DNA of 64,000 nucleotides from a virus (Duplodnaviria; Caudoviricetes). Where the stretch lies: positions 50 to 64,049 of IMG/VR virus record IMGVR_UViG_3300037502_002379; one strand, given 5' to 3'. Within the stretch, counting starts at the first letter, position 1, and every line of letters starts with the position of its first letter. Made by a program: the position numbers and the translations under genes. Under the pieces are notes generated by a model. It did no database searches and was not told the origin of the DNA. It worked only from the letters and a program-made list of their open reading frames with translations. This document shows, piece by piece, positions 8,921 through 56,268 of this stretch.

Positions 8921-9461
8921 TTCCTAGTTTCTCCTTATTACTTTTAGTGAAAGCCTCAAATAGATTTTTGTCAGGCGTAAATTCTACAATATCCTTTCGG
9001 TTAAGGTTAGCGCCAAACAAGTTGCCAAACATGTCCGCAGCGTCTTTTATAGCTACCGTTTTTGCAATCGGAAAAGCCATTGATAACGCTCCGTTGTTTA
9101 TGTTCACAAGGTCAGCAGGTGATGTTCCCTTAGCCGTTTGAAGCTGTGCCGCGCCAATCCCATCGTGGAAGCTCCATTCGCCCGTCAAAGGCGATTTAAA
9201 GTGAACGCGAACTGTAACCCATACCCCGTTAAAGGCTGTACCTTGCCCCGTAATCTCAATACGATACTCTTTGAATATCTTACGTAGCAACAATTCAATT
9301 TTGTCAATAGGCAGGTATTTATAGCCCTTAATGTATGGGTGTTCTTTCACCCATCGTTTCGGAGGTTGCGCGTTTAGCAATGCGTTTAGCGCATCATTTT
9401 TATAGGCTAGTTCAATGTCGCCAGTTAAATCAGCTAGCGTTGGCAGTTTGTTTTGTTCCAT
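8913..9461 (-). CDS. single-strand annealing protein (Rad52/Sak-like)
   Basis: YLPIDKIE and A.T.AIK.AA..FG.LFG..L motifs; lies next to the YqaJ exonuclease. Confidence 0.7.
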   Translation of the reverse strand: MEQNKLPTLADLTGDIELAYKNDALNALLNAQPPKRWVKEHPYIKGYKYLPIDKIELLLRKIFKEYRIEITGQGTAFNGVWVTVRVHFKSPLTGEWSFHDGIGAAQLQTAKGTSPADLVNINNGALSMAFPIAKTVAIKDAADMFGNLFGANLNRKDIVEFTPDKNLFEAFTKSNKEKLGNE

Positions 9462-9470
9462 TTTTATTGA

Positions 9471-9917
9471 TTAAAGATTTTCTAAAAGATTTGCGTTGCG
9501 GAGGATTTCGATTGCGTTTTCAGCGTGGGCTAAAAACTTGAATTTACTAGAGATTTCATCGAATGCGCGATAGTGGACTACGTATTGGTCTGCTTGTTTT
9601 ACAAGCACATAACCCACACCCCTATAATCCACCTCCTCATTGTAATAATCCGCAATGTTTTGCAGTGCGATTAGCGCCTGAATCCGCTTGCATTGGCGCT
9701 CGGTGGAGAGTTGCGAGTGGTACGCATCATCATCTTCTTTGTAATCGGTGCATATAATTTCATTTGCTTCATCTATGCACCATTTAGGCCTAACCTTATT
9801 AAACACCTCCTGCAATGTTGGAAGTGTCGGCTTTGTTTCTGGTTGCGGTTGCGGCTCAACTAATCTGATTTCGTAAGTCTTGCCGCCTAGTTCGATTGTT
9901 TTTGTTTCTGTGTTCAT
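9471..9917 (-). CDS. hypothetical protein
   Basis: ORF track, operon context. Confidence 0.6.
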   Translation of the reverse strand: MNTETKTIELGGKTYEIRLVEPQPQPETKPTLPTLQEVFNKVRPKWCIDEANEIICTDYKEDDDAYHSQLSTERQCKRIQALIALQNIADYYNEEVDYRGVGYVLVKQADQYVVHYRAFDEISSKFKFLAHAENAIEILRNANLLENL

Positions 9918-9918
9918 G

Positions 9919-10158
9919 TTATTGGTTTTGAATTGTGATAGGTTCGTTGTAGTCTGTAAAGAAATTCATATCCCAATTTTCAGAATAACTACCAACACTA
10001 TAATTATCCAAGCTGCCCGACTGAATAACTATTCCAATTTTCTCAGACAAAAAAAATACTATCCTATCTGAAGGATTTCTGCAAGTTGTAATCATCAGTT
10101 TAGGAAAAGGTTTTACTTCTTGCGTTTTTGCTTCGCCAAGCGTTACTTTGATTGCCAT
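9919..10158 (-). CDS. hypothetical protein
   Basis: ORF track, operon context. Confidence 0.6.
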   Translation of the reverse strand: MAIKVTLGEAKTQEVKPFPKLMITTCRNPSDRIVFFLSEKIGIVIQSGSLDNYSVGSYSENWDMNFFTDYNEPITIQNQ

Positions 10159-10319
10159 GTTATTGATTGTTTTGTAATGAATAAATCTGATTAAGTGTCA
10201 GTCTGCTAAGTATCAGCAAATGCCAACAGAATAGCATATTGCGCATATTCGGAAACAGTCCGCATTGTAAGCAGAATATCTTGACTTCGCGAGGTGAAAT
10301 GTTTGGTTTTGGTATCATT

Positions 10320-10802
10320 TTATCCGGTTATGTCTTTAATGAATGATAGGTCAAGCGGAGTAAGTTCGGGCTTTAGTTTTTGCATTTCGGCAGCTTCTTG
10401 TTGATGCCTTTTATCCATTTGTTCTTTTTTATCCAACCATTCAACATAGTCAGGATTGTAAAAAAAGAAGTAATTTGTTTTGCCTTTTAGCTGTTCTAAT
10501 GGTTGTGTTATTTCGGTTTGTGTTTTCCCGTTCTTTTCAAGGAGCAAGCCTCCATCTTTTCTAACCTGCAATAGTTTAACAATACTACCATCTGAATAAG
10601 ATTGTTTATGCAAGCACATAAACGGCTCAAATTCAACATTTGCCTTTATGTGTTCGTCAATAGCTTTGCGGCAATCTTTTAGGCTTTTGCGACCTTTTTT
10701 GCGCCAATTGTCTTCGATTAGAAGTTCAACCGTGAATTTATCAGTATCGGCATTGTACCAAATCTGATGTTCTCTGTAAGTTTCGACTAAGAATTTGTCC
10801 AT
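10320..10802 (-). CDS. hypothetical protein
   Basis: ORF 10320..10826; ATG at 10802 lies downstream of promoter TATATTTG at 10824-10831. Confidence 0.6.
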   Translation of the reverse strand: MDKFLVETYREHQIWYNADTDKFTVELLIEDNWRKKGRKSLKDCRKAIDEHIKANVEFEPFMCLHKQSYSDGSIVKLLQVRKDGGLLLEKNGKTQTEITQPLEQLKGKTNYFFFYNPDYVEWLDKKEQMDKRHQQEAAEMQKLKPELTPLDLSFIKDITG

Positions 10803-10876
10803 TTTTACTGTTTTAATTATGCGCAAATATATGCTTATTGTTTTGACATTTACAAATTATCCACAAAAAAGATTTG

Positions 10877-11305
10877 TTAATTATTTTCAGCGTCTTGTTT
10901 TTCTTGCCAAATAATATCTTTCAAACACTCCTCGCACACTAGAATATCCCCCATGCGCTTGTCAGCGTGATTAATCAGCAAATCTTCCTCAAAATAATTT
11001 CTACAGTCAAAACATTGCTCCGTTTCGATGTCCTCGATTTCGGGATAGCTTCTGTAATCGGGGCTAAACAACCAAAATATCATTAGCCCGTGCTGCGATA
11101 CCCTGCGCTGCGATTCCCGTTCGCGCTTGACAATCTCATCCATCACCGGCTGATAGTGCTTAAAGTGCGCATTAAAATCGGTGTGGTCGCCTTTGTACAA
11201 TGCAGCATCAATCGCTACTATCCAATCAGGGTAGTGCTTAGGCGTTACTTTGTCTTTTGTTTCGTAGTAAGTCGCTACGAAGTGGTCAATTGTTGTTTGG
11301 TTCAT
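10877..11305 (-). CDS. hypothetical protein with C-terminal Zn-finger
   Basis: CFDC...CEEC motif. Confidence 0.6.
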   Translation of the reverse strand: MNQTTIDHFVATYYETKDKVTPKHYPDWIVAIDAALYKGDHTDFNAHFKHYQPVMDEIVKRERESQRRVSQHGLMIFWLFSPDYRSYPEIEDIETEQCFDCRNYFEEDLLINHADKRMGDILVCEECLKDIIWQEKQDAENN

Positions 11306-11700
11306 ATATTCTTATACGGATTGTTTGGTAATGTTGTTGCGTCAATGGCTTCGTTGTCTTCGATTAGACCGAAAAGGTCAAAGCTGCGTGAGAGTAGGTA
11401 GGCAGCACCCATTGCTATTTCTAGCAACTTTAAAGGAAACAAATGACCTTTTATAATTTCATCTATAGTATCTATTCGGACTGAATCCGAATCTTCTATG
11501 CTATTAGGATTTACAAGTTTGTAAAACTCAAGCTTTTCTTCCTCTGTCATATCCGACAACGGGCGAAGGATTGGCTTGTGTGGATTGTCTGACTGTTTCC
11601 AATTTGAAGGAAAGTGTGACGGCTTTAACTCGTAAATCTGATTATTGTAATCCATACACTTGCAGCCTAAGTACAAATGCGCTACGTCTTTGAATTTCAT
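11302..11700 (-). CDS. conserved Bacteroidetes-phage hypothetical protein
   Basis: KPILRPLSDMT and FDLFGLI motifs. Confidence 0.65.
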   Translation of the reverse strand: MKFKDVAHLYLGCKCMDYNNQIYELKPSHFPSNWKQSDNPHKPILRPLSDMTEEEKLEFYKLVNPNSIEDSDSVRIDTIDEIIKGHLFPLKLLEIAMGAAYLLSRSFDLFGLIEDNEAIDATTLPNNPYKNI

Positions 11701-11801
11701 AATAAAAATATTGCTAGTGAAAAAATAATAATCCCTCCGAATAACAGCACGCAGCCCGAATAGAACAGCGCGGTGTCAAGTTGTTTGTAGTTGATGTTCA
11801 T
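11697..11801 (-). CDS. 34-aa membrane peptide
   Basis: MNINYKQLDTALFYSGCVLLFGGIIIFSLAIFLL*; ATGA overlap with the next gene. Confidence 0.45.
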   Translation of the reverse strand: MNINYKQLDTALFYSGCVLLFGGIIIFSLAIFLL

Positions 11802-11805
11802 GTTA

Positions 11806-12627
11806 TTAAATAATTATTTTCTTAATAGGGCTTGCAGTGCCTAAAATATCTACATCTGCTATCTTTATATACCCCGCAGTTGTATTTATATTTTTATGAC
11901 CTGCAATTTTTTGTACCGTTCTTAAATCAACGCCATCTATTACCATTTGAGTTAAACAACTGTGTCGTAAAGAGTGTGATGATATTTTCTTTTTAAAACC
12001 TAATTTATTTGCAATAGACTTAACAAGTGTCTGTATGCTTTTTTCTGAATACTTACCACCTTTAGCGCCCTCAAATAAATATGTTTTTGTTTGGTAAATT
12101 TTCCAATATTCCCTTAATAATTTTACAATGGCAGAATCAAGCATCACTATCCTGTCAACTTTTCCTTTCCCATTTTTTACTTGTATTTTATTATTAGAAG
12201 TATCTATGTCTCTAATTTTTAAATTTACAACCTCTCCTACTCTAAGGGCACATGAATACATTATACAAATAATAGCTTTATGCTTAATATTTTTTGTGTA
12301 ATTAACCATTCGCTGAAACTCATCAACTGACAATACATCTGGTTGCTTTTGCTCAATTTTAGGTCGAGGCAATATTTTATTATTAAAATTCTTATCTAAA
12401 CATAACCTGTAATAACACTTAAAGGCATTTATTACAGCCATTCTTGTTGATGCAGAATAATGAGTTTTACTTAGCAAGTACATACGCAAATCATTTTCGG
12501 ATATATCTTTAGCATCTTTATTAAAATGTTTTGAAACATTAGATACTATTGATAAATAACTCCTTGAAGTTTTGCCACTAAAGTTTTTTAGAAACATCAA
12601 TTCTTTAAAATCTTGCAATTTATCCAT
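11806..12627 (-). CDS. tyrosine recombinase, putative integron-like cassette integrase
   Basis: SAM-like N-terminal domain; catalytic R (LRVGE), K (GKGK), HxxR (HSLRH), H (GH) and Y (TTAGY) all present; lies 53 bp from the first cassette boundary. Confidence 0.9.
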   Translation of the reverse strand: MDKLQDFKELMFLKNFSGKTSRSYLSIVSNVSKHFNKDAKDISENDLRMYLLSKTHYSASTRMAVINAFKCYYRLCLDKNFNNKILPRPKIEQKQPDVLSVDEFQRMVNYTKNIKHKAIICIMYSCALRVGEVVNLKIRDIDTSNNKIQVKNGKGKVDRIVMLDSAIVKLLREYWKIYQTKTYLFEGAKGGKYSEKSIQTLVKSIANKLGFKKKISSHSLRHSCLTQMVIDGVDLRTVQKIAGHKNINTTAGYIKIADVDILGTASPIKKIII

Positions 12628-12639
12628 AATGCAAAGATG

Positions 12640-12688
12640 CTAATTATTTTTGATATACGCAATATTGGACTATATAATAGTTACCTGC
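12640..12688 (+). other. attI-like primary recombination site (TATATAATAG|TTACCTGC)
   Basis: First G|TT junction next to the integrase start; no attC hairpin precedes it. Confidence 0.65.
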
Positions 12689-12693
12689 AAGCA

Positions 12694-13656
12694 CTACGGA
12701 CGTTCTTCGATTAAGCATTTCGGTTCAGTTTTAAATAATTTTTTTTCCTCCACTTTTAAAAAAGAAAAGATATGTTCAACTATTCCAACAGTCCATCCAT
12801 CACCAATCAAATTGCCCGCCTGTGCCTTGTTTAAATTTCTTGTATATCCTTCGGGTATATTATGAAGCCTTTCAAGTTCCTTTTGTGTGCAATACCTCAC
12901 TCCCTTACTTTCGTCCATTGTTTCGTCTGTATAAATGATTGTAGTCATTCCAGTAGTTGCGTAACGGTGCAACATATATCTTTGGTTTGCATCTCGGCCA
13001 CAACTTGTATTTAAACAAGTATGTTTCTTTTTATCAGAATATCCGTATTCCAAAACATCATTTAACAGTATCTTTTTATCTCTCGGTTGTGGTATTGCAC
13101 ACTTTCTGTTTCCAAATAAATCAAAAGTTTCAGGCCCGATATTAGTCCAAAACAATCTATCTCTCAATGCACCACTCACTCTACTTCCACAAAGTCTTAC
13201 AGGTTCAGTTCCTAATAATTCAGATATTGTATTGTAGCCTAAATCATCCATTATCACATTTTCAAGCAAATAGTAATCGGGTTTAGTTTCTTCGAGTAAT
13301 CTTATGTATTCATAAAATAACATTGATTTCATTCCTTTTAATCCATCCCTTACGCTATTTGCCCTACTAAAATCTTGGCACGGGCTACCTCCAATCAATA
13401 AATGTATTTTTGGCAAATCTTGGCCTTTCACTTTTGTAACATCTCCAATCTGAATAGTATCAGGAAAATTATCCATTGTGCATTGTATGGCGTGTTTCTT
13501 TATTTCGGCTGCATAATATCGTGTAGGTTTCAATCCTACATTATTAAGGGCAATTTGTCCGCAACTCATACCATCAAATAATGATAATACGTTAAATTCT
13601 TCGGCAAAGCCGTTTTTGCCATCCCTCAAAAAATTATTTAAAACTGTTTCTTTCAT
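12694..13656 (-). CDS. C5-cytosine DNA methyltransferase (cassette 1 cargo)
   Basis: LSLFDG (motif I), GGSPCQ (motif IV), LENV (motif VI), R.RLFW and IGDGW. Confidence 0.9.
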   Translation of the reverse strand: MKETVLNNFLRDGKNGFAEEFNVLSLFDGMSCGQIALNNVGLKPTRYYAAEIKKHAIQCTMDNFPDTIQIGDVTKVKGQDLPKIHLLIGGSPCQDFSRANSVRDGLKGMKSMLFYEYIRLLEETKPDYYLLENVIMDDLGYNTISELLGTEPVRLCGSRVSGALRDRLFWTNIGPETFDLFGNRKCAIPQPRDKKILLNDVLEYGYSDKKKHTCLNTSCGRDANQRYMLHRYATTGMTTIIYTDETMDESKGVRYCTQKELERLHNIPEGYTRNLNKAQAGNLIGDGWTVGIVEHIFSFLKVEEKKLFKTEPKCLIEERP

Positions 13657-13689
13657 CTAATTAGCTTTATCGTTTAATAAACCGTGCCA

Positions 13690-13785
13690 GCAGGTAACAA
13701 GGTATTTGCAAAATTGCCCATCAACATTGTGCTTAATTTGAAGTATCTGCAAGGGCAACTTCGCAAATACCCAAACGTTATGCCC
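13690..13785 (+). repeat. attC-like site of cassette 1
   Basis: GCAGGTAAC ... GGTATTTGCAAAATTGCCC / GGGCAACTTCGCAAATACC stem ... GTTATGCCC. Confidence 0.85.
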
Positions 13786-13789
13786 AATG

Positions 13790-14185
13790 CTAAGACAGCG
13801 TTCTGCCAAAACATGTGACTTTTTGACCATCTTCAAAATGACTTGCTTTTTCTAAAAGTTCATTCATAATGTCATTGATATTAAAATTATGTGAGAAACC
13901 CATCTCAATTTCATAGTTACCGTTTCGGTCAATAACACAACCCATTGCTTTTTCAACGCTTTCGGTTAATAGTTCTCGATAAAAATCTTTATCTATATTC
14001 AAATCCTTTACAATAATGTGTGTTGTGAATTTTCTACTTTGTATTCCACACATTGAAACTTCTGATGGGTTTCCATTTCCTAATTGAAACTGACCAAACA
14101 TAAGCAAGTCATTATCATCACACCAATGGTAATCCTTTTCGTTTACATAACCTTTCGGTCTTGAATCTGCTACAAATACTTTCAT
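13790..14185 (-). CDS. hypothetical protein (cassette 2 cargo)
   Basis: Single ORF filling cassette 13777-14345. Confidence 0.75.
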   Translation of the reverse strand: MKVFVADSRPKGYVNEKDYHWCDDNDLLMFGQFQLGNGNPSEVSMCGIQSRKFTTHIIVKDLNIDKDFYRELLTESVEKAMGCVIDRNGNYEIEMGFSHNFNINDIMNELLEKASHFEDGQKVTCFGRTLS

Positions 14186-14218
14186 TTTTCTGTTTTAAAA
14201 TTGTTCAAAAAAAGCACT

Positions 14219-14354
14219 GGGCATAACACGTGTTTTGCGTTATGGTGGCTGACGTGCTGAAATCAACCGCAGTAATTCTATTTGGCTTTAGTGCTATGCC
14301 GACAGTTAGTGCTACTAATCCGCCACAAACGCAAAGCACCTGAACGTTAGGCAC
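14219..14354 (+). repeat. attC-like site of cassette 2
   Basis: GGGCATAAC ... GTGTTTTGCGTT / AACGCAAAGCAC stem ... GTTAGGCAC. Confidence 0.85.
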
Positions 14355-14670
14355 AATATGCTTTCCTGTATCGCTCAATTATGGTATCGTTTTCTGCAAA
14401 TGGTAATGCTATCGGGCATGGGTGGTCAAAGTCAAAAAAACTTTCCTCTCCACATTTACTACACTTGTAATGAACAACATTCCTTTCTTCAACATACACA
14501 TCTCTGATAAATGATAAGTTTTTTTGCCCTTCATCATCTGTATCGCCACACATTTCATTTTTACATTTGCAGTAAACGAATGTTCTTTGGTTCTTCTTCC
14601 TAATCCGCATACTGCTCCTAACATGGTATTTATGCCATGCCGTATTTAGTGCTTTAATCAAGTTTGTCAT
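14347..14670 (-). CDS. Cys-rich (Zn-ribbon) hypothetical protein (cassette 3 cargo)
   Basis: CKC...C and CSKC motifs; the TAA stop lies inside the GTTA junction; likely ATG at 14670. Confidence 0.65.
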   Translation of the reverse strand: MTNLIKALNTAWHKYHVRSSMRIRKKNQRTFVYCKCKNEMCGDTDDEGQKNLSFIRDVYVEERNVVHYKCSKCGEESFFDFDHPCPIALPFAENDTIIERYRKAYCA

Positions 14671-14738
14671 TCTATTTAGGTTTAAATTGTTAACCAACTT
14701 TTGTCTTTCAAATCGGCACGGACATAAATACTCGTCCC

Positions 14739-14953
14739 GTTATAAGCAAGTGGCTGTGGTTAAAGTTCAACATTCCGAACTCCTCCTGTGGTTATCGGAG
14801 GCAGTCTTTGAACTTTACCACTCCACAGCCACCAGACTTATAACATGGGCTAAAACGCAATAGGCACGGAGTACCTTTCAGCATTTGTGATAGCATTGAA
14901 CCACTTGTCCCGTTTAGTTCTGTATGCACACCTACTGCGTTTAGCCCAATTCC
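14739..14953. other. ORF-less hairpin cassette (cassette 4)
   Basis: GTTATAAGCAAGTGGCTGTGG pairs with CCACAGCCACCAGACTTATAAC; inner AAAGTTCAA/TTGAACTTT and TCCGA/TCGGA pairs. Confidence 0.75.
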
Positions 14954-14962
14954 GTTATGCTC
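14837..14962 (+). repeat. attC-like site of cassette 4
   Basis: CTTATAAC ... GGGCTAAAACGCAATAGG / CCTACTGCGTTTAGCCC ... GTTATGCTC. Confidence 0.85.
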
Positions 14963-15140
14963 CATTGCTACGTGTCTGCTTCGATTTGAAATTTGTGGAA
15001 GTTTTTTGTTCTTTTTTCTCCCCACGCACAAGAAAAATCAAATGGTCTTGAATAAAGTTTTTAAGGTCTTTATCTGCGTCAATAGCCATCTTCTTTAAGT
15101 CTTTGACTATTTCTTCGGGTATGTCAATTAGCTTTTTCAT
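14955..15140 (-). CDS. ribbon-helix-helix-like regulator (cassette 5)
   Basis: MKKLIDIPEEIVKDLKKMAI...LKNFIQDHL has the beta-alpha-alpha pattern. Confidence 0.65.
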   Translation of the reverse strand: MKKLIDIPEEIVKDLKKMAIDADKDLKNFIQDHLIFLVRGEKKEQKTSTNFKSKQTRSNGA

Positions 15141-15143
15141 AGA

Positions 15144-15248
15144 TTATTCAATACCCATACCATCGGATTTTTTGTAAATTATAATTCCAAAAATTACCCA
15201 AACTACTATTACAAATATAAGGGCTTGTCCTATTGTTATATCGCACAT
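15144..15248 (-). CDS. 34-aa single-TM peptide (cassette 5)
   Basis: Read by hand: MCDITIGQALIFVIVVWVIFGIIIYKKSDGMGIE*. Confidence 0.5.
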   Translation of the reverse strand: MCDITIGQALIFVIVVWVIFGIIIYKKSDGMGIE

Positions 15249-15484
15249 AATTTCCTTTTTGCTTCAAATAAATCAAACATTTGTTCACCAGTTAGCGATA
15301 ATGTAATTCTACCACCATCAGTGTAAGTGCCTGTAATTTCATCTTCTTCCATTGCATCATAAACTTTAGAAAGTATCATTGCAATAGTTTCTAATTCATC
15401 CGCAGTTAATTTTTGACTGCGTTTTTTTGGCTGAGCGTCTAATGTGCTGTTGCCAATATTTCTTTCGTTAATTCTATATCCCAT
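15236..15484 (-). CDS. hypothetical protein (cassette 5)
   Basis: ORF 15236..15538; ATG at 15484 lies downstream of the internal promoter TATATTTG at 15508-15515. Confidence 0.6.
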   Translation of the reverse strand: MGYRINERNIGNSTLDAQPKKRSQKLTADELETIAMILSKVYDAMEEDEITGTYTDGGRITLSLTGEQMFDLFEAKRKLCAI

Positions 15485-15626
15485 TTTATGTGGTTTTAAA
15501 TTATATGCAAATATATGCCGTATATATGACATACGCAAGAAAAAAGTAAAATATTTTTTGCCTACCCATAAAAAAAGAACAAAAACCTTGCTCCTATTGA
15601 AGTTTACTGCTAAAAATCCGCAACGA

Positions 15627-15726
15627 GAGCATAACAGCGGTTTTGCGTCAGGCGGGGTGCGGTGCTAACTTTGAACATTCGTGCTAATAAACCCGCCCGA
15701 ACGCAAAGCCGCAAAACGTTATGTGC
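15627..15726 (+). repeat. attC-like site of cassette 5
   Basis: GAGCATAAC ... GCGGTTTTGCGT.AGGCGGG / CCCGCCC..ACGCAAAGCCGC ... GTTATGTGC. Confidence 0.85.
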
Positions 15727-15745
15727 AATTTTCTTTTTCATTTTT

Positions 15746-16693
15746 TTAGCCAACGCTCAAATGATTTAATGATTTTTTGAATGGGTTATACTCATAATCT
15801 TCCCAACTGCACGAATTGAAGATTATCCTATTGTTTACATATCTTGTGTATGCTTTTTGATACCTATCATCTTTATTGTATGGCATTACAAAAGGCTTAC
15901 ATCCCAATTTCCTTAAAAATTCAACTCTGTAATAATCTTCTTCGGGAGAAGTATCAAACCCAATTAAAACAAAGAATTGCATATGTTCGCAAGGTATTCC
16001 CCATTTATTACAGCGTTCAATACCTCTAATTATTACCTTTTCATCTTTGAATTGGTCCCACGCAAATGTCAAGTATCGTTTGTTGAATTTTGAATTGTAA
16101 TACTTCACTTTTGCTAATGCTTCTGCTTGTCTATCTGAAATAATGCGAATATTCAAACCTTGAACAAAGCAAACTTTCAAATCAAGTTCTGCAATTCTAT
16201 TCAAATTAGCTTCCCAATTTGTGCCACCAAAAAAATCATTATCCAAAAGCATCAAGTTTTTACCGCCTGATGGGTTAGTGATAAGTTCGTCAATGGTATT
16301 GTAATTGTATGGTCTGCCTTCTTTTTTTGGCACACAACAAAAATCACATTTAAAACGGCATCCTTTCATTGAAAATCCATAATGAAAAGGAGTATTTGGA
16401 TAAATCTCCCAATCCATTGGAGCATTTTCAATTTCAGCAGGTAGTTTGTTATAAAAATCAATTCCAGTTCCACCAATCACCATATTTTCGGGTATTTGTG
16501 GCATTTCGCTAAAATTAAAAATCTTACTTGCATAAATCTTATCGTATTGACTTGCAAACAATATTCCTTCATACCATTCGACTGTATCGCCAATAGATTT
16601 ATGGTAAGCCGATATTTTCATAAGTGCAATATTTGGAAATTGTACTCCTTGATAATCCGTTCCATCAACTTGATATATTGCTATTCGTGCCAT
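15746..16693 (-). CDS. radical SAM protein (cassette 6 cargo)
   Basis: CxxxCxxC motif GCRFKCDFC; PNIALMKIS, GGTG and LLDNDF motifs. Confidence 0.85.
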   Translation of the reverse strand: MARIAIYQVDGTDYQGVQFPNIALMKISAYHKSIGDTVEWYEGILFASQYDKIYASKIFNFSEMPQIPENMVIGGTGIDFYNKLPAEIENAPMDWEIYPNTPFHYGFSMKGCRFKCDFCCVPKKEGRPYNYNTIDELITNPSGGKNLMLLDNDFFGGTNWEANLNRIAELDLKVCFVQGLNIRIISDRQAEALAKVKYYNSKFNKRYLTFAWDQFKDEKVIIRGIERCNKWGIPCEHMQFFVLIGFDTSPEEDYYRVEFLRKLGCKPFVMPYNKDDRYQKAYTRYVNNRIIFNSCSWEDYEYNPFKKSLNHLSVG

Positions 16694-16746
16694 AAATGAT
16701 TTAATGATTTAATTGCCCACGCACAAAAAATGAAAAAGAAAACAGA

Positions 16747-16879
16747 CACATAACAGCACATTGCCAAAAGTGGCGATGCGGTGCTAAAATCAAGTGTAGT
16801 GCTTCTAATTATCATTTGTGCTATATTCAAAATTTGTACTTCTAATTCGCCACCATCGGCAATCTGCAACCCGTTATAT
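16747..16879 (+). repeat. attC-like site of cassette 6 (distal end of the array)
   Basis: CACATAAC ... ATTGCC....GTGGCGA / TCGCCAC....GGCAAT ... GTTATAT; the G|TTA overlaps the stop of ORF 16874..17080. Confidence 0.8.
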
Positions 16880-17080
16880 CCCAAACAATTTATCAATATT
16901 CTGCTCGGTGCTTTCCGTTGCAAGTCCGTAGTTAATCGCGTTGTGGATAACAGGTCTGCTGCGAAATGTTTGCTCGGCTATCCAAACATAAGTACCGATA
17001 CTCGGTCTTAGCTTTTGCCACTTAGCCACTTTTTGCGGGTCAACTTGGCGAACCTTTTCAATGTACGTTGATTGTTTCAT
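16874..17080 (-). CDS. hypothetical protein
   Basis: ORF track; resident gene upstream of the array. Confidence 0.55.
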   Translation of the reverse strand: MKQSTYIEKVRQVDPQKVAKWQKLRPSIGTYVWIAEQTFRSRPVIHNAINYGLATESTEQNIDKLFGI

Positions 17081-17081
17081 T

Positions 17082-17399
17082 TTACTGTTTGATTTTTGCT
17101 AAAATATTCATTGCCATCAATACGCATTCATCAGAAGTATTATCGCTTTCAGTTACCTCCAATAGCGAATTTACTAGCAAATCGCGCTGAGAAAGCAATT
17201 CTGACGGCATCAGTCCGCATTTTTGCGCGGTGTTGCCTGCATCTGCAATTAAGCAGGCATTTTGTTTTGCAGCTATAATGCTTACATTATTGCTTGTTTG
17301 GGTAACACAAATTGTAGGTATTTTACCAAACTCTGCATTGCATACTACAGCCAATTCATTTTCAAAAGCAATTCTCCATTTCCCTTTTGTTATTTCCAT
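17082..17399 (-). CDS. hypothetical phage protein
   Basis: TKGKW and NACLIADA motifs. Confidence 0.65.
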   Translation of the reverse strand: MEITKGKWRIAFENELAVVCNAEFGKIPTICVTQTSNNVSIIAAKQNACLIADAGNTAQKCGLMPSELLSQRDLLVNSLLEVTESDNTSDECVLMAMNILAKIKQ

Positions 17400-17417
17400 T
17401 TGTTATTATTTACGCAG

Positions 17418-17425
17418 CAAAGGTA
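17418..17425 (-). promoter_or_regulatory. TAnnTTTG promoter (TACCTTTG) facing the cassette array
   Basis: Consensus match about 20 nt upstream of the ORF start at 17399. Confidence 0.65.
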
Positions 17426-17459
17426 CAAACTGTTTTGACAATTACAAAAAATAATTGTT

Positions 17460-17490
17460 AAAAGAAAAGGCAGCCTCATGACTGCCCCAA
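17460..17490 (-). terminator. intrinsic terminator
   Basis: GGCAGTCATGAGGCTGCC followed by TTTTCTTTT on the minus strand. Confidence 0.65.
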
Positions 17491-17534
17491 GCGATTGCGC
17501 TCCACCTCCGCTAGTTACGGATTGGTGCAAAAAT

Positions 17535-17563
17535 AAAAAAGCCCCTGAATAATCAGAGGCTTT
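17535..17563 (-). terminator. intrinsic terminator
   Basis: AAAGCCTCTGATTATTCAGGGGCTTTTTT on the minus strand. Confidence 0.75.
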
Positions 17564-17654
17564 CGCGTTAAACGCACCGGAAAATAAACGACCTCACCTA
17601 GTACGCGATAACTAAGCGCGTGAGGTACTATTGCTGCAAAGATATAAAACTTTT

Positions 17655-18269
17655 CTATTTCCCAAACACACGCCAATAAGCCCCAACCATGTGCGCTTGC
17701 CCTCGAATGTCATAGCCATAAAAGCCATTAAAGGACTTATACGAAACAGCAACGGAAGGAGCTGCAACAAAGTCTGTAGCGGTGTTGTTTACGCCTACAA
17801 TAGCGCCTATGTACACGCTAGGCAAAGGCTTTTTGACTTTGGTTATTATCTCTCTGATTTCGGGTTTTAGGTTCGCGTGTTGCAGCTTAAAATCTAACAG
17901 CGTGCCCAATACCGTAGTCGTGTAGATTATTTTGTAATTGTTAGCCTCGCGCAAGGTGTCTGAGTAAGTACAAGTGTCAGGCAGTTGCGTAACAATTTCT
18001 TTGGCTATTATTCGTATCGTATCGCATGGTATCGTATCAATTCGGCTAATCGCTTCTACTTTTGCTTTGTTCGGTTTTTTGCTGATTACTTTCGGATGTG
18101 TTACGGCTATTTGTTTAAGTGTGGTATCTCGGTAAATAGTATCATGTACAACACTCACTACTTCGCCACAATTGCGCTTGCCGTAATGATAGCCAGCGCA
18201 ACCGCCAACACATGAGAACAGCACCACAATAGCAGCGAATACAAGCAATAATATTTGGTTTGGTTTCAT
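17655..18269 (-). CDS. membrane/lipoprotein, candidate spanin
   Basis: N-terminal hydrophobic segment with Cys, DT-rich linker, beta-strand C-terminus; downstream of the lysis genes. Confidence 0.5.
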   Translation of the reverse strand: MKPNQILLLVFAAIVVLFSCVGGCAGYHYGKRNCGEVVSVVHDTIYRDTTLKQIAVTHPKVISKKPNKAKVEAISRIDTIPCDTIRIIAKEIVTQLPDTCTYSDTLREANNYKIIYTTTVLGTLLDFKLQHANLKPEIREIITKVKKPLPSVYIGAIVGVNNTATDFVAAPSVAVSYKSFNGFYGYDIRGQAHMVGAYWRVFGK

Positions 18270-18478
18270 TAGTTTTGATTGGTTTCTTCGTCTTCAAAGA
18301 TAATTTCTTCGTCTATTTCGATAGCCTCAACTAGCTTCAATGACTTTTTGAATAGTCCAGGCGCGTCAAGCTGCACAGCCTTAGTTAGCCCCTCATCGTA
18401 ATTTACAGCATACACGGTAATTTGCACCTCATTAGCGCTAATCGGTTCGGTGTATGCAAATGTTATCTGCCACATCAT
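18269..18478 (-). CDS. hypothetical protein
   Basis: ORF track. Confidence 0.5.
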   Translation of the reverse strand: MMWQITFAYTEPISANEVQITVYAVNYDEGLTKAVQLDAPGLFKKSLKLVEAIEIDEEIIFEDEETNQN

Positions 18479-18683
18479 ATTTTTCAATCATTTTATTTAG
18501 ATACCATTGTGCTTTTTTCAAGTCCTCTAGCCCGTTTTTTTGCTCACATCTCCAAATATACTTAATTATATTAGCCGTGCATACTGCCTGCAATCCCTTC
18601 TTTTCGGCTGTAGCTGCTTCTATCGCATCAATACACTCGATTTTGCCTTGCTTGTAATGCGAAGGGTTTATTTTATCGTTCAT
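18438..18683 (-). CDS. DUF3310 family protein
   Basis: NPSHY..GKIECIDAI, NIIKYIWR and EDLKKAQWYL motifs. Confidence 0.9.
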   Translation of the reverse strand: MNDKINPSHYKQGKIECIDAIEAATAEKKGLQAVCTANIIKYIWRCEQKNGLEDLKKAQWYLNKMIEKYDVADNICIHRTD

Positions 18684-18684
18684 T

Positions 18685-19683
18685 TTACAAGACTTTCCCG
18701 TTTGTTATCTGTAAATTCCTAACCTCAAAATCACCGTTGTTTTGAACTGTAATGTGCGCAAAACCAAGATTCCATTCGTTAAGAGAAAGATACTCTGGGT
18801 TAAGCTCACATAAGCAGCCTATAACCCAAGTTCCTTGCACACTGCGGCTGATATTAGTCTTAATCATGCTTTGCGTTTTATGTTTATCACCGCAAATAGT
18901 GCTTTCGCCTGCACGAAGCCACAATGTACGGGCTGCATTTATACCGCCTCCACCTTTGTATTCATTGCCATGTATAGCGTGCAACTTTCCTATTTTAATT
19001 ACCTGCGCGTTAGGTATCCATGTAACACCGCGCTCACGAAGTTTAAGGATAACGGGCAATCTAAACTCACTCATATCCAAAATAACGGGCGCTTTAACCC
19101 GTAAAAAACGCTCCCATCTTTTTTCGTGGTTGCCTTCTTTGTAGAATATTTTAGCCGTTGGGAAGTGCTTTGCCAGCACATCTAAAAACTGACGACAAAT
19201 TTCAAATTCATAGGCTAAGTCGCGTGCGCTAGGGTTTTGTTCGTGAAAACTAGCCTTATGAAAGTCCATAATATCACCAAGCAGTAGTATGGTGTTTATG
19301 TTGTGCTTTTTGCCATAGTCAAGCGCTAAAGTCAAAGCCTCGTTATTTTGGTAAGGCAAGTGAATATCGCTTAAAACAAGGATATTATTGTTAGCCTTTG
19401 GCATCACATAGGCAATGGGCTTTTTTTCATCTGATGGTGGCAATCCGTACGGATTATCAAAACTAAAATTTCCTTCCATTTTCATAGGCTCTTTTACTTT
19501 TTTACGCTGACCGTTACCGTGCGCCCCCGTGTGGTATCTTATTAACGTTCGCGCGTCTTCAATGTCCTTAAACAACAAAGGATTTTCTTTAAATAGCTTT
19601 TCGGCTAATGCATGCTTGCTTGCTTTCGGGAAACGAGTAATGTATTCTTTAACCTTTTCACCTTTGATGCTTGGTTTTGACAT
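18685..19683 (-). CDS. calcineurin-like metallophosphoesterase
   Basis: SDIH, GDIMD, GNHE, HG and GDKH motifs. Confidence 0.85.
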   Translation of the reverse strand: MSKPSIKGEKVKEYITRFPKASKHALAEKLFKENPLLFKDIEDARTLIRYHTGAHGNGQRKKVKEPMKMEGNFSFDNPYGLPPSDEKKPIAYVMPKANNNILVLSDIHLPYQNNEALTLALDYGKKHNINTILLLGDIMDFHKASFHEQNPSARDLAYEFEICRQFLDVLAKHFPTAKIFYKEGNHEKRWERFLRVKAPVILDMSEFRLPVILKLRERGVTWIPNAQVIKIGKLHAIHGNEYKGGGGINAARTLWLRAGESTICGDKHKTQSMIKTNISRSVQGTWVIGCLCELNPEYLSLNEWNLGFAHITVQNNGDFEVRNLQITNGKVL

Positions 19684-19687
19684 AAGC

Positions 19688-20257
19688 CTATTGTTTGCTT
19701 GCGTACTTGTTAAGTGTGTATGCTATTGCCTTTGCAATTCTAGTCTTTTCCGATTGATATTTCTCAATTTCTTCCTTGTTTGTAATAAAGCAAACTTCAA
19801 TCAACACATTTTCGCCCGTCAATCGCATCCAACCTAACTGCTTTCGTGCGCTTTCGCTTTCGCGCTTTACACCTGCCACGCGCAACTGACCGCTACGCAA
19901 CGGGCTATTAAGTATTTCGGAAATGTCCTCTGCGATATCTTTAGCCATATCGCGTTCAAAGTTAGTATAGGTATCTGGAATAAAACATTCTACCCCTTTC
20001 GCTTGCGGTGTGGCTGCATTGAAATGAATATCAAGCAATATGGCACTAGGATTAACAAGTGCCTTAAAAGTGTTTATTGTTTGTTGTAGCGCATTCTTAT
20101 CGTCATCTACAATTGGAGTAATCATGTGCGCTTTCAAAGCCGCTACAATTAAATCGCGCAATTCAGCCGCTAAGTCGCCCTCTTTGTAACCGTTGGCGCT
20201 TGCACCTGCATCCGTACCTTTGCGCGTATGCCCTGCGCTTATGAATATCTTTCTCAT
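19688..20257 (-). CDS. endolysin, N-acetylmuramoyl-L-alanine amidase (Amidase_3)
   Basis: SAGH, E, IHFNA and LIEVCFITN zinc-amidase motifs. Confidence 0.9.
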   Translation of the reverse strand: MRKIFISAGHTRKGTDAGASANGYKEGDLAAELRDLIVAALKAHMITPIVDDDKNALQQTINTFKALVNPSAILLDIHFNAATPQAKGVECFIPDTYTNFERDMAKDIAEDISEILNSPLRSGQLRVAGVKRESESARKQLGWMRLTGENVLIEVCFITNKEEIEKYQSEKTRIAKAIAYTLNKYASKQ

Positions 20258-24558: not shown

Positions 24559-27500
24559 TTAGTCTGTTAGTTCGGTTGGTTTATTAGTTTCTTTAGCTTT
24601 ATTTTCTACTGCCGCTTTTATATCATAATAAGAAGGAAGCCCACCACCCATAGTCATAAGTAAAATGTGAAGCGCATTTACTCCCGTATTAGCTATTTGC
24701 CATAACTCCTTTTCTTCATCGGTTACATTTTCGCCATTGGCAACTTTTTTTGATATGTCGGCTATATCCATAACCGTACCACTTGCATTAGTAACACCTT
24801 CTGAAATTACACCCAAAGCAGGTATTAAATCTGCTTCGTATTTCTTAATAGCTTCATTTGCAGCAAACTTATTTTTACTTGTAATTTTATCAATATCAGG
24901 CGACAACCCATAAAAGTTCTCCTTGGCAATATCTCTTATTTTCTTTTTAACTGCCTCGTCTTTTGTGTTGTAAGCAGCAATCGCCAATGCTGATTTTGAT
25001 ATTGTACTGCCTATTGCTCCATACTTAGCAGAAGCGATGTTTATTGCTTGCCCCGCTACCGTTTTTGATAAACCTTCTGTCGTAAACTTATCTTCAAGTT
25101 GCTTCTCTTGTTTCTTTTCTTCTTCCTCTCCTTTTATTTGTGCAGCAATAGTTCTAACCACTTGCCCCATGTAAGCATACACAAGCATATTTATTGATAC
25201 CGCCAAAGGCTTTCTCAAAGAACGCAATGCGCCTATACCCTCACCTTCTTTCCATCGTTCTGCAACCTCCTTAAATCCGTTCCAAAATTCTTTTTGCTCT
25301 CTGTATGGATAACCACCCATGAACGATATTATCTGCCCAGTAGGCGTATCAGCGTCTATGTTTTTAATATCCTTGCCAAATAAAGGAATTGTTTTACCGC
25401 TAAAGGGAATTTTAATCTCTCGCCTTGCGCCAAATCTACTCCCGCTACCTATAATTTTCTGCACTTCGTTTGACGCAACTGCATTAGCATCTTTTATGGC
25501 TTGCAAATTATCTGAACGATATTTCTCATCACTTCTAAACTTACTTATATCAAAATCATTCCCTGTTGCAGCCTTAAATTCATCTCTGAAAATAGGCATA
25601 TAAACAGTTTTCATCATTGTCATTTCGGGAGTACCTCCAAGATAATAAGCCGCTTTTTGCATAGGCGACATCGACTTAATTTCACCTTCTGTTAATTGGA
25701 ACTGTTGGTTTACATTAAGTCTTTCTGCAAGTGGGCTACCCGTAAATTCAAGAATATCCTTCATGCCACCACGCTTAAACAATTCTATATATCCCAATGG
25801 TTCACCACCTCTTGTTGGCATAGATGATAATGTTGCAACAAATTCTTTAACAGTCTTTAGTGGGTTTAGCTGTACTAATGTAGAACGCAAATTTTGCAGC
25901 TTTCTTATCGGGTCTGATTTTAAAGTATTGCCGTACTGCCTAACCAATGATTCCTTTACATCTTTAGCCACAACAGCCATCACATCGCTTGTTTTCTTAT
26001 TCGTTGCGGCATTGATAGTTCGGTTAACTTCCTGCATTGCCTTAGTCAATTCGTAATCTCTATTGGCATTTGAAATAGCTTTTTCAGCAGTTTCAACAAT
26101 ATCATAATTCAATGCTTCGACTTCTTGACTTGTTCTTGATTCTCCAAACGGGCTTTTAATAGAAATTCTATTTGTTTTGCTATCAATAGCCACATCATAA
26201 GTATCGTCATCAATAGTGGCATCTCCATCCCTTCTTATTCTTGGGGCATAAAATGGCTGTGCATTAAATTCTTTACCACGCATTTCGTTTGACGCTTTTT
26301 GCTTATCGGCATTAACATCTTCTGCGTACTTAAACCACTTAGCAAGTGCAGCACCTTCCTCTTTTGTAAGATACTTGCCATCGTTTGCCATAAAACTATC
26401 GTACAACTCTTTTGGAGAAAGTGATTTACCCGATTCTAATTTATCACCTACCAATGATTCCCACGCCTTTAATACTTCTTTAGCTTCTTTTTCGTCTTTA
26501 AATCTTGACTGCAACTTTTTATCAAACACATCTTTAACCCAATCTCTATTCCCAATATTTTCAACCTTTGAAAATTTAGGATTGTATTGCGCCATATACT
26601 CTTGTAGCATATTCGCCACTATACCCATACGCAAACGACTTTGTTTGTTCTGATTGCCAAATATGCTTTTCAACTCATTTACTCCTAACTGTGTTTGCCT
26701 ATTAGCTTTTTCAATAGCTGAAATTAAAGGGTCGTAAATATACTTAGTCAAAGCCCCCGCTTTCTTTCTACCAAGTCCTAATTCACCCTCCCTAAAAGCA
26801 ACTTCTTCTTTTGCAAGTTCATTTAGTTTGGCATTTACATTTTCAACAGAAGGAGATTTAGCTTCAACTTGCCTTGCAACAGCTTCTGCATTTCGTAAAG
26901 CATTGGCTTCGCTAACTATATCTCTAAGCCTATAATGGTCAACAAATCCATCTGCTACGTTCTGTAAAATATCAGCTAAATCGGAAAGCATTTCAGGTGG
27001 CAACCTCTTTAAATCAGCAGGTTTAATAGCCGAAAATTCAAACAGCAATTCTTTGTCCGTAGGAGATTTTATATCCGCAACTGCATCTTTGTATTCTTGT
27101 GTTGATTGTACCGCCAAAGCATCCTTAATCAAGTCAGTCTTTAACCTATCCACATCAGCACCAAACTTAGCATCAAATGCTTTTCTATCTTTTGCCAAAG
27201 CATCAAGCAAATCATTTCTTTCTTGCTCAGTTATAGTGCCATCTTCAAACAACTGATTAACACGCTTATTAAAAGCACGAATGTTTTTAAGCAATTCCTT
27301 GTAATCTTCAATGGTATCAATTTTCGTTGATAATGCTTTTTTCAAAGCATCTTCTGCTTCATTAAATGTTTTTACGTTTTCAAATGGTTTTGGCTGCCTT
27401 TTAAACTGCGTAATGTCATAAAACATTTCTTGCATCTTCTTGTAATTCGGCACACCATTAGCTAAGTCATTTAACGCTGCTATATAATCAGGCAATTTAT

Positions 27501-53407: not shown

Positions 53408-53450
53408 GGTTTATGTTGTTGATTATCAATATACATTCGCAAAGTATCAT

Positions 53451-54317
53451 GTTATACGCAAGGGCTACATTCCGTCTCCGTTTGACAATTTCGTGTTCAA
53501 AAAAAAACAAAAAATTTCCCCACGCTTCTAAAATAATGTAGTTTGCATTTGTTCATTCTCTAATCGTTTTAATCCTGCCAAATAATATTCCTCTACTAAT
53601 TCACACCCAACAAGGCTAAACTTCTCCCTATGGCAAGCAATCGCAATCGAAGCACTTCCCAAGTGAGTATCTAAAATCAAATCGCCTTCCTTTGCATAGT
53701 TTTGTAATATCCATTGGTATAGTTGTATTGGCTTTTCTGTCGGGTGTATGCGTTCTTGCTTGTTGCCCATATTTTGCTGTATAAATCCGTGCCAAGTCCA
53801 TTTAAAAGTCCTTACAGCAGTATCAAAAGAAGTCCAAGCAAGTTCAGCATCAGCAAAATATCCGCCTACTTTGTTTTTATCCCAAACAAGCCAACAACTA
53901 CTATTTTTATTTATCCGTTCAATAAAGTGGTTTGCCCCCCAAATGATTTGATTTTTAGATACTCTCATTAGTTCGTCAAAATAAGCCTTGTCAGGTGCTT
54001 TTTTATCCCAATCGTATTTAGTGTATTGCTTTGCCTTTCCTGCTCCGTCAATACCTATTTTACCGCCATCCATATCAATTCCGTATGGTGGGTCAACTAT
54101 TGCTAAATCAAAATGTTTGTCAGGGTATTTAGCCATAAGTTCCATATTGTCGCAATTAAATAATTCTATTTTCCCTTCGCTCATTTTTTGTTTTTTTTGT
54201 TTGTGCTACTAATTAAGTTCCTACTAAATAACCGCCCCAGCGTATAACACGGGTTTGGCGCAATTTTCCCAACGCACAAGCCGACACACAACTGCGCCAA
54301 GCCCGAAAACGTTATCT
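53451..54317. mobile_element. solitary gene cassette with attC-like site (54240-54317)
   Basis: Starts GTTATACGC; ends GCGTATAAC, then CGGGTTTGGCGCA / TGCGCCAAGCCCG stem, then GTTATCT. Confidence 0.85.
53528..54184 (-). CDS. N6-adenine/N4-cytosine DNA methyltransferase, beta class (cassette cargo)
   Basis: DPPY, HPTEKP and DTHLGSAS motifs. Confidence 0.9.
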   Translation of the reverse strand: MSEGKIELFNCDNMELMAKYPDKHFDLAIVDPPYGIDMDGGKIGIDGAGKAKQYTKYDWDKKAPDKAYFDELMRVSKNQIIWGANHFIERINKNSSCWLVWDKNKVGGYFADAELAWTSFDTAVRTFKWTWHGFIQQNMGNKQERIHPTEKPIQLYQWILQNYAKEGDLILDTHLGSASIAIACHREKFSLVGCELVEEYYLAGLKRLENEQMQTTLF

Positions 54318-55990: not shown

Positions 55991-56031
55991 TTATATGTAG
56001 TTGGTTTTAATTTGTATTTGCGAAGTGTCGT

Positions 56032-56268
56032 GTTATGTGGCATTAAGTAAACCATTGAATATAATACCCATCAAAACCTTTTACTATTTTACCACATTTA
56101 ATCCAACCTTCAAAAGGTTCATACTTCCAAGCATACCCGTTTTCTATCTGTATCATTTTTTAAATTTTAACGGCACATAACAATGGTGTTGCATAATAAC
56201 CCCATCAAGTGTCGTGGTTAATTTTAAGTTTATACTAAGAACTACTACACAAAGCCATAAGCCATTAA
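56032..56268. mobile_element. degenerate solitary cassette with a 37-aa ORF and a decayed attC-like site
   Basis: GTTATGTGGCATTAA pairs with TTAACGGCACATAAC; the downstream sequence is homologous to the attC at 13690; the terminal GTT reads ATT. Confidence 0.65.

Follow-up and report, generated by a model that had tools for sequence, protein, structure and literature searches.

In the CTX-phi system, a Xer recombinase without the insertion specific to integron integrases (IntI) recombines a folded, single-stranded hairpin with a double-stranded site through the exchange of one strand. For the integrons themselves, which IntI defines, the view set out in the consulted parts of two papers is that the I2 segment of IntI enabled the recombination of folded, single-stranded attC sites (PMC4792948, PMC7790495). 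In the portion of the IntegronFinder 2.0 survey considered here, one complete integron is reported from the Bacteroidetes proper, that of Salinibacter ruber, besides those of Chlorobi and Ignavibacteriae (PMC9024848). Among phages, Qi et al. (2023; PMC9892861) screened 10,705 genomes with IntegronFinder and HattCI and, in the sections consulted, describe 17 attC clusters without an integron integrase, including a cluster with two methyltransferases in phage P12002L. Here, we analyse a recombinase gene and an adjoining array of hairpin-bounded gene cassettes in a 64,000-nucleotide (nt) stretch of tailed-phage DNA, positions 50 to 64,049 of the IMG/VR record IMGVR_UViG_3300037502_002379 (hereafter the window). 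Our reading, to which we give a probability of roughly 0.8, is that a large tailed phage carries an integron-like gene-cassette platform with a Xer-type recombinase. A full-text literature search found, within the library searched, no account that links a cassette array in a phage to a Xer-like recombinase.

The original prediction, which was made from the letters of the window alone, proposed a phage-borne, integron-like array beside a recombinase that is not IntI. Annotation bears this out: the window carries portal, terminase and primase genes, and the boundaries of the array lie at G|TT. The recombinase (11806-12627, minus strand; 273 amino acids (aa); PF00589 at 1.5e-39, and PF13495) is intact, as had been claimed, with a complete catalytic R-K-H-R-H-Y set (R129, K154, H218, R221, H244 and Y253) that is invariant across 25 homologues. 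Its top NCBIfam model is XerA_Arch, at 187.9 bits and thus below the cut-off of 220; with XerC (151 bits, cut-off 335) and XerD (151 bits, cut-off 330), it falls under every Xer equivalog threshold. The IntI model TIGR02249 reaches 142.4 bits where its cut-off demands 265, the match being split between model positions 2-179 and 238-314, with 180-237 unmatched; NF011946 reaches 90.5 bits, below its cut-off of 435. The best solved structures are those of XerA (5HXY, 4A8E), which align end to end at an E-value of about 1e-31. The alignment to IntI4 (2A3V) is split: residues 7-174 of the recombinase correspond to chain residues 9-180, and residues 194-270 to chain residues 243-319. The 62 chain residues that are skipped (181-242) face 19 residues of the recombinase, leaving about 43 aa of the IntI-specific segment missing; the C-terminal tail aligns with that of IntI4. 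Because the alignment skips this part of the chain, the IntI-specific segment is taken to be absent, and the assignment as a recombinase without I2 agrees with the two-piece, sub-threshold TIGR02249 match and with XerA as best structural match.

The recombinase belongs to a family of 212 proteins at E<=1e-20 among 619 candidates, mostly of 273-277 aa. In one genome each of 185,579 prokaryote species there is no relative above 32% identity, the best match being partial, and a role as a lysogeny integrase is therefore unsupported. Relatives in bacterial prophages, as a temperate-phage integrase would have, were not found beyond this match of 32% over part of the protein, and no IntI scored above cut-off in the control genomes.

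Ahead of the recombinase lies an attI-like site (12628-12690) whose conserved left part runs to TAG|TT; a variable R box, GTTACCTGCAA, comes next. The distance between the G|TT crossover (12680) and the integrase ATG is 52 nt, and the integrase points away from the array. Nineteen integrase loci have AAC| directly before a conserved block (TAwTrTATAG...TTGCGTATAT, or a second variant) ahead of the integrase start, and in 10/11 loci the variable bases of attI are complementary to the first hairpin. Folding gave no hairpin at attI, none was found left of the integrase (11700-11830), and the attI region, looked at for dif-like arms, displayed weak dyad symmetry by eye only and no fold. Within 12628-12690, immediately before the ATG, stands a TTTG promoter-like element similar to TAnnTTTG (for example TATATTTG at 12628-12650), with counterparts in the corresponding position of 18 loci, at distances of a few to 25 nt from the start codon of the integrase. 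It resembles the -7 promoter box of Bacteroidota, a resemblance that gives a hint of the host phylum and of a promoter for the integrase within attI.

The limits of the array are drawn by comparison with two related loci, L003 and L027, which have the same flanking backbone as the window and no cassette in common with it, homology ending at window positions 12690 and 16872. Identical array content in all relatives had been named at the outset as an outcome that would count against a cassette system; both relatives hold wholly different cassettes. The integrase of L027 is 92% identical to that of the window, the flank matches correspond to window 17096-16872 and 12690-11695, and between them the two loci have in common only 40 nt of hairpin arm. 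At the left boundary, both read TTTTTGATATACGCAA.ATT.GACT.TAT.ATAG|TT and diverge after it. On the right, the homology of the window, L003 and L027 restarts at G|TTA.A.CCCAAACAATTTATCAAT, and the adjoining hairpins differ. The right-hand backbone junction of the window, G|TTATATCC (16873-17080, minus strand), overlaps the stop codon of a conserved 68-aa open reading frame (ORF; 16874-17080). These breakpoints therefore define the plus-strand unit as TT, gene, hairpin and G, and rule out a crossover at the other hairpin end. The minus-strand reading, in which the crossover would fall at the opposite hairpin end, was rejected: the hairpin at the right backbone differs between the window, L003 and L027, and the left boundary is hairpin-free. 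Different cassettes at the same spot in related phages are pointing to an unrecognised gene-swapping system in phages. The record that contains L003 (G001) has hairpins at both contig ends, and its array wraps round. At 800-1110 of the same record (L118), about 300 nt encoding a small unrelated protein stand in the place of the integrase, with the array and the first ~12 nt of attI kept.

Within the array, the first bases of a cassette (R') are the reverse complement of the motif that opens its own downstream hairpin (R''). Five such pairs had been quoted; all ten motifs are present at the coordinates given with the cassettes below, and every pair is an exact reverse complement. The quoted length of 8-9 nt is exact as far as it goes, but complementarity often extends to 13-15 nt. 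All 23 variable positions across the five pairs match, and four of the five longer motif words occur just once or twice in the window. Six units bounded by G|TT had also been proposed, and their bounds and five pairs stand, but the sixth unit (14347-14739) has a hairpin of its own, at 14614-14747, which had been overlooked. A scanner for AAC...GTT elements containing a stem of 12 bp returned 14 sites across the window versus 2-5 in each of five shuffles, recovering the known hairpins, the one at 14614-14747 and a solo hairpin at 54240-54319; the hairpins of the window were also detected as inverted repeats and in DNA folds.

The same relation extends beyond the window. When the six bases after GTT of one hairpin were compared with the six before AAC of the next, neighbouring hairpins in 10 arrays matched at 6/6 positions in 20/30 pairs, against 16/1414 (1.1%) of random between-locus pairs and 2/40 for R' and R'' within one hairpin. 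The count excludes loci with one hairpin only, the duplicates L016/L033, both solo sites and two low-scoring hits. Most failures trace to a missed hairpin or a long gap. Two pairs matching at fewer than 4/6 positions, 14612 to 15625 in the window and 3362 to 2040 in L034, each span a hairpin that the covariance model described below missed (attC4 in the window, because of which the first pair is not truly adjacent), and a third, 6728 to 4042 in L019, spans 2.5 kb. In L027, an R'' complementary at 13/13 positions is followed by a truncated hairpin, which indicates a deletion. The window being a metagenome-assembled virus record, chance or assembly artefact has to be weighed; the counts lie far above the shuffled and random controls, the same architecture recurs in independently assembled sequence from IMG/VR, from several metagenome sources and from a cultured phage, and this explanation is thereby excluded.

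A covariance-model search, which the original prediction had proposed as a check, recovered a coherent family of sites. The model, R1, was built from 12 hairpins and, with copies counted at E<=0.5, found 46 copies in 16 sources. The attC-type core is present, with TAAC in 44/46 copies and GTTA in 42/46, and the layout is uniform: C(A/T)GC-nnn-TAAC-A, 1-2 unpaired nt, stem, loop, stem, 5-6 unpaired nt ending in C, then GTTA-nnn-GCAA. Canonical attC sites carry extrahelical bases; unlike them, the sites described here have a lopsided unpaired spacer, of 1-2 versus 5-6 nt. Loop lengths fall into three classes of about 40, 56 and 92 nt. In the inner stem, 8/8 pairs change on both sides and 93.7% of cells are paired, versus 28-39% with slid partners. 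Stem sequence thus varies freely while pairing is kept, and it is shape, not sequence, that is conserved. Rfam 15 contains no family matching at its gathering score, with noise only at E<=10. The loops (for example window 14250-14330 and 16780-16850, and L027 5992-6134 and 6891-7030) have motifs such as TTTGTGC and TTCTAATT in common, and a direct repeat of 30 nt lies within attC6. Promoters or binding sites for proteins may lie in these loops.

The layout of the cassettes departs from the canonical one. In 33/33 cassettes the longest ORF lies on the strand opposite the hairpin, in the same sense as the integrase, reading towards attI; all 33 are therefore inverted, which had gone unnoticed, and each gene is preceded by its own hairpin. 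Some cassette ORFs have their start codon inside the hairpin loop. One stem position (alignment columns 19/186) is a T.G pair in 18/46 hairpins (GGTTTTGC / GCAAAGCC) and would be a C.A mismatch on the ORF-sense strand; this fixed T.G may be a strand-choice signal or a mark of shared ancestry. Tyrosine recombinases cleave between 5' arm and spacer (5'-arm|spacer), and this polarity, together with the mapped crossover, points to the ORF-sense strand as the folding strand. The ORF-sense strand is also predicted to be the stabler in 38/46 copies (mean difference 1.5 kcal/mol; Wilcoxon p 1.3e-6).

Stem-loops so placed invite a regulatory explanation, in which the hairpins serve as promoters or terminators and the mosaic arises through homologous recombination between similar hairpins. 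Such recombination has been proposed between the promoter stem-loop cassettes of T4-type phages, and here many hairpins have arms GGTTTTGC/GCAAAGCC and loop motifs such as TTTGTGC in common, some cassette ORFs start in the loop, and assemblies break at hairpins. Exchange of arms, however, gives no complementarity between the bases after GTTA and those before the next TAAC, as is seen in the 20/30 pairs; the left boundary of the array has no hairpin to recombine with; stem sequences differ widely while their pairing is kept; and the T.G position would be a C.A mismatch in mRNA. This alternative is accordingly quite improbable, and the cassette-platform reading is preferred.

Single cassettes recur in other sequencing runs. 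Nineteen runs from 14 other studies contain 12-18% of the sampled words of 11700-17100, and contigs of four of them were used (X2, X4, X6 and X19, from four other studies); contigs show presence and context, not absence. They contain window cassettes 1, 2, 5 and 6 singly, with 90-99% identity. The matched stretches open at 12678, 14954, 15702 and, in two runs, 15718, and they close at 16745 and 16876; contigs break or change flank at 12678/12680, 14954, 15718 and 16876, and beyond these points lie other hairpin arms or cassette starts. An all-against-all comparison (nucleotide and translated) of 19 array regions revealed almost no common cassette, the exception being a solo methyltransferase of the window and L014, so that the pool is either very diverse or thinly sampled.

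The hairpins keep company with this integrase. Apart from the two solo sites of the window, every one of the 46 copies is found upstream of the integrase gene, on the other strand. In an 86-source search, 29/31 hits fell in the 94 kb around integrases of >=46% identity, with two weak hits only (L093) in the 378 kb around distant integrases, and 11/15 distinct integrase loci with >=400 nt upstream gave R1 hits. From this co-location alone, we infer that the integrase is the catalyst of exchange. The hairpin would recombine as folded, single-stranded DNA.

In this arrangement, the recombinase, without an I2 segment, adjoins the attI-like double-stranded site, and a cassette consists of one small gene or none together with an imperfect hairpin site of ~70-140 nt. 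Under the mechanism that we propose, cassettes would leave as circles, and a single crossover at G|TT would bring them into attI or into a further hairpin, from which it would follow that the first bases of a cassette are complementary to the start of its own hairpin. The cassette genes, which point to attI and the integrase, share their reading direction with the other genes of the phage. In its fuller form, the proposal is that a Xer-type lineage without I2, whether never acquired or lost, recombines folded, single-stranded hairpin cassettes and maintains a large, shared pool of them, promoter-bearing and inverted, that circulates among Bacteroidota phages; we lean slightly towards this fuller version.

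Several observations weigh against the platform reading. No circle, excision junction or activity was seen in the run contigs, which tend to break at repeats in any case. The cassette-6 hairpin in X6 differs in the spacer before GTTA, which leaves an uncertainty of about 10 nt in the crossover position. The covariation alignment had been fitted to the model's own structure, and single hairpins are no stabler than shuffled sequence (z-scores -1.00, -1.08, -2.03, -0.84 and +0.28), because of which the structural support rests on covariation across the 46 copies. The clues to the folding strand conflict, the T.G position favouring the plus strand while polarity and stability favour the ORF-sense strand. 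Four of the 15 distinct loci with >=400 nt upstream (L017, L018, L041 and L043) gave no R1 hit; the record of L017 (G002; 60 kb, with terminal repeats) has an integrase and no R1 hit. The cultured phages Freya, Leef and Ingeline, with integrases of 31-35% identity, have no convincing hairpins, Leef_1 and Ingeline_1 giving weak R1 hits only, at E 0.18 or worse. Lastly, arrays occur apart from the integrase: G001, a close backbone relative, has an array and a partial attI but no integrase, and in Polaribacter phage P12002L at least three cassettes in a row, those of gp53 (Mom-like), gp54 (a methyltransferase) and gp55, have the same hairpins and the R'/R'' hallmark, but there is no annotated integrase. 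Arrays can thus persist without the integrase, and a different enzyme could be at work.

This leads to the rival in which the cassettes are real and mobile but moved by another enzyme, a host IntI or Xer or that of another phage, the adjacent Xer-like gene serving multimer resolution or integration. Besides the arrays of G001 and P12002L, it draws on the best score of the protein being as a Xer, and on the report, in the part of PMC9892861 consulted, that IntI1 recombined 5/6 phage attC sites, one of them from P12002L. The P12002L hairpins found here may be the sites called in that paper; that attC sites were called in P12002L at all suggests that existing attC models may catch some such hairpins. 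Arguing the other way, an attI-like site lies directly ahead of the integrase in 19 loci, its conserved half travelling with the gene; hairpins occur in 11/15 distinct loci of the clade and almost never near distant integrases; and the clade is absent from the 185,579 species genomes. Classical integrons are rare in Bacteroidetes, according to the portion of PMC9024848 considered, and integrase-less arrays are common among true integrons too. We therefore consider movement by another enzyme unlikely, and continue with the phage's own recombinase as the probable mover.

The Freya phages merit separate mention. The genomes of eleven isolates range from 43,978 to 48,920 nt. Ten small ORFs that Freya_10 (L012 1-4150) has beyond those of Freya_1 (L013) stand directly upstream of an integrase of 34% identity and share its orientation. 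A hairpin of this type was found upstream of the Freya integrase by neither the scanner nor R1, and the region may represent a different flavour of the same idea.

Six cassettes, all defined on the plus strand with their ORFs on the minus strand, make up the array of the window. Cassette 1 (12681-13777) carries a C5 cytosine DNA methyltransferase ORF (12694-13656; PF00145, TIGR00675) and attC1 (13690-13785; hairpin E-value 2.3e-12); its R' at 12680 and R'' at 13690 match at 9/9 positions, and it is also present in run X4, from 12678. Cassette 2 (13778-14346) carries a DUF7715 ORF (13790-14185; PF24831 at 4.7e-11) and attC2 (14219-14354; E-value 2.8e-4), with a 9/9 match between 13777 and 14219, and an X2 contig spans 13785-14245. 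Cassette 3 (14347-14739), the unit with the overlooked hairpin, holds a cysteine-rich ORF (14347-14697; phrog_4005 at 2e-6) whose likely start falls within the loop of attC3 (14614-14747; E-value 1.3e-5 to 1.7e-5); its R'' is GCTCCTAAC versus the expected GTGCCTAAC, a 7/9 match.

Cassette 4 (14740-14954) is without an ORF and consists of a near-perfect hairpin (14739-14845) and attC4 (14837-14962), with R'/R'' at 14739/14837 matching at 8/8 positions. The fold of 14734-14850 has a z-score of -6.2 and attC4 one of -2.0; attC4 was undetected by R1 at E<=1. In run X4, the sequence flanking 14739-14845 differs on both sides, and this 107-nt hairpin may itself be a mobile unit or a small RNA gene. 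Cassette 5 (14955-15718) contains two ORFs, of 61 aa (14955-15140) and 100 aa (15236-15538), neither with a family match in Pfam, NCBIfam or PHROG, and attC5 (15627-15726; E-value 2.5e-11); the pair 14954/15627 matches at 9/9 positions. In X2 and X6 contigs, 379 nt of its interior (15141-15519) are swapped for 540 nt with both ends kept, an instance of within-cassette mosaicism. Cassette 6 (15719-16873) bears a radical-SAM-domain ORF (15746-16693; phrog_9298 at 3.1e-71, with a weak Pfam Radical_SAM match under cut-off) and attC6 (16747-16881; E-value 0.006). Its pair 15718/16747 matches at 8/8 positions, and contigs of X2, X4 and X19 have one limit at 15702 or 15718 and the other at 16745 or 16876.

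Two further cassettes stand alone at secondary sites, again on the plus strand. The solo cassette (53452-54319) sits among structural genes and comprises an N6/N4 DNA methyltransferase ORF (53528-54184, minus strand; PF01555 at 5.7e-17) and the hairpin at 54240-54319 (E-value 3e-10); read as its reverse complement, GTTATACGC at 53451 gives the R'' at 54240. Its methyltransferase is 40-47% identical to the first-cassette protein of array L014, and the R boxes are identical. A decayed solo cassette (56033-56274; model E-value 1.5e-4) opens with GTTATGTG at 56032 and has a small ORF and a degenerate hairpin (56171-56274) that closes with ATTA in place of GTTA and for which no stable fold was found. 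Both secondary sites (53408-53451 and 56000-56032) have a common left flank, TTyGCrAAGTrTCrTG|TTAT, resembling a hairpin 3' arm without the 5' arm, which may be a preferred secondary target.

The cargo that can be named consists of DNA methyltransferases (a C5 enzyme in cassette 1, an N6/N4 enzyme in the solo cassette and, in L003, a weak match of Eco57I-like type), alongside the radical-SAM-domain, DUF7715 and cysteine-rich proteins; most remaining cassette proteins are without a family, and Pfam named 2/10 further ones, one of them below cut-off. Since the identifiable cargo consists of orphan DNA methyltransferases, anti-restriction and other counter-defence cargo is suggested, and the presence of such genes in a large cassette pool makes fast exchange of accessory and anti-restriction genes among co-infecting phages the likely benefit.

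The source record is an IMG/VR virus of 64,049 nt with a CheckV completeness of 55%. Nearly all long ORFs of the window are on the minus strand; PHROG matches include primase/helicase, portal, large terminase and virion proteins, and a search for tRNA genes in the window found none. Two giant ORFs occupy 24559-31647 (2362 aa), without a PHROG match, and 34337-39172 (1611 aa), with a virion structural protein match in the last quarter only. In the phage collection, the relatives of the terminase, at 26-28% identity, are Flavobacteriia phages only (of Cellulophaga, Flavobacterium, Tenacibaculum and Maribacter) and one unassigned record. These relatives, the P12002L hairpins and the TAnnTTTG-like element tie the window phage to Bacteroidota indirectly. 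A near-identity DNA search of 9000-20000 against the phage collection gave no match, a single-protein search of viral contigs with the integrase gave nothing, and the 359-aa neighbour protein and the terminase found no usable relatives in viral contigs.

A recombinase without I2 beside a cassette array makes the origin of integron recombination, and the need for I2, directly testable. Such a platform could be a phage-borne second solution to the integron problem, having either arisen independently or survived as a relative of the ancestor that preceded IntI. As a form of site-specific cassette exchange, it would join the processes already known to make phage genomes mosaic, and it would account for hypervariable accessory regions, and for some of the breaks in assemblies, among environmental phages. 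Its arrays would mark a large reservoir of small phage genes; tools that require IntI would at best label such arrays orphan attC clusters. If activity were confirmed, it would be unexpected under the view, as given in the consulted parts of PMC4792948 and PMC7790495, that I2 enabled single-strand recombination.

Compared with bacterial integrons, the system has in common a recombinase gene that points away from an adjacent attI, a crossover at G|TT, imperfect palindromes running from ...TAAC to GTTA... with R'' complementary to the cassette's own first bases, small and mostly one-ORF cassettes, array content that changes from one close relative to the next, single cassettes inserted at secondary GTT sites, and integrase-less arrays. 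It differs in that its enzyme is without the IntI-specific segment and has its best scores among Xer proteins, that the cassette ORFs are inverted, each gene following its own hairpin and being transcribed towards attI in a departure from canonical polarity, and that the carrier is a phage, the clade not having been found in the genomes of 185,579 prokaryote species. With Xer recombinases it shares sequence similarity, highest to archaeal XerA, and a likeness to the CTX-phi case of Xer acting on a folded, single-stranded hairpin and a double-stranded site, although the same mechanism is only proposed here; unlike them, the protein is below the XerA cut-off, phage-encoded and linked to a many-cassette array rather than to dif. 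The integrase-less clusters of attC sites (CALINs) in the consulted part of PMC9892861 include the methyltransferase-bearing cluster of P12002L, one site of which IntI1 recombined; those are described there as stray integron parts with no partner recombinase named, whereas a dedicated non-IntI integrase and an attI accompany the present hairpins across a family of phages. Like the ancestor proposed in the portions of PMC4792948 and PMC7790495 considered, the enzyme is Xer-like and without I2, but unlike that ancestor it is associated with hairpin cassette sites. The system is integron-like in its working, and departs from the integrons in its integrase and in the polarity of its cassettes.

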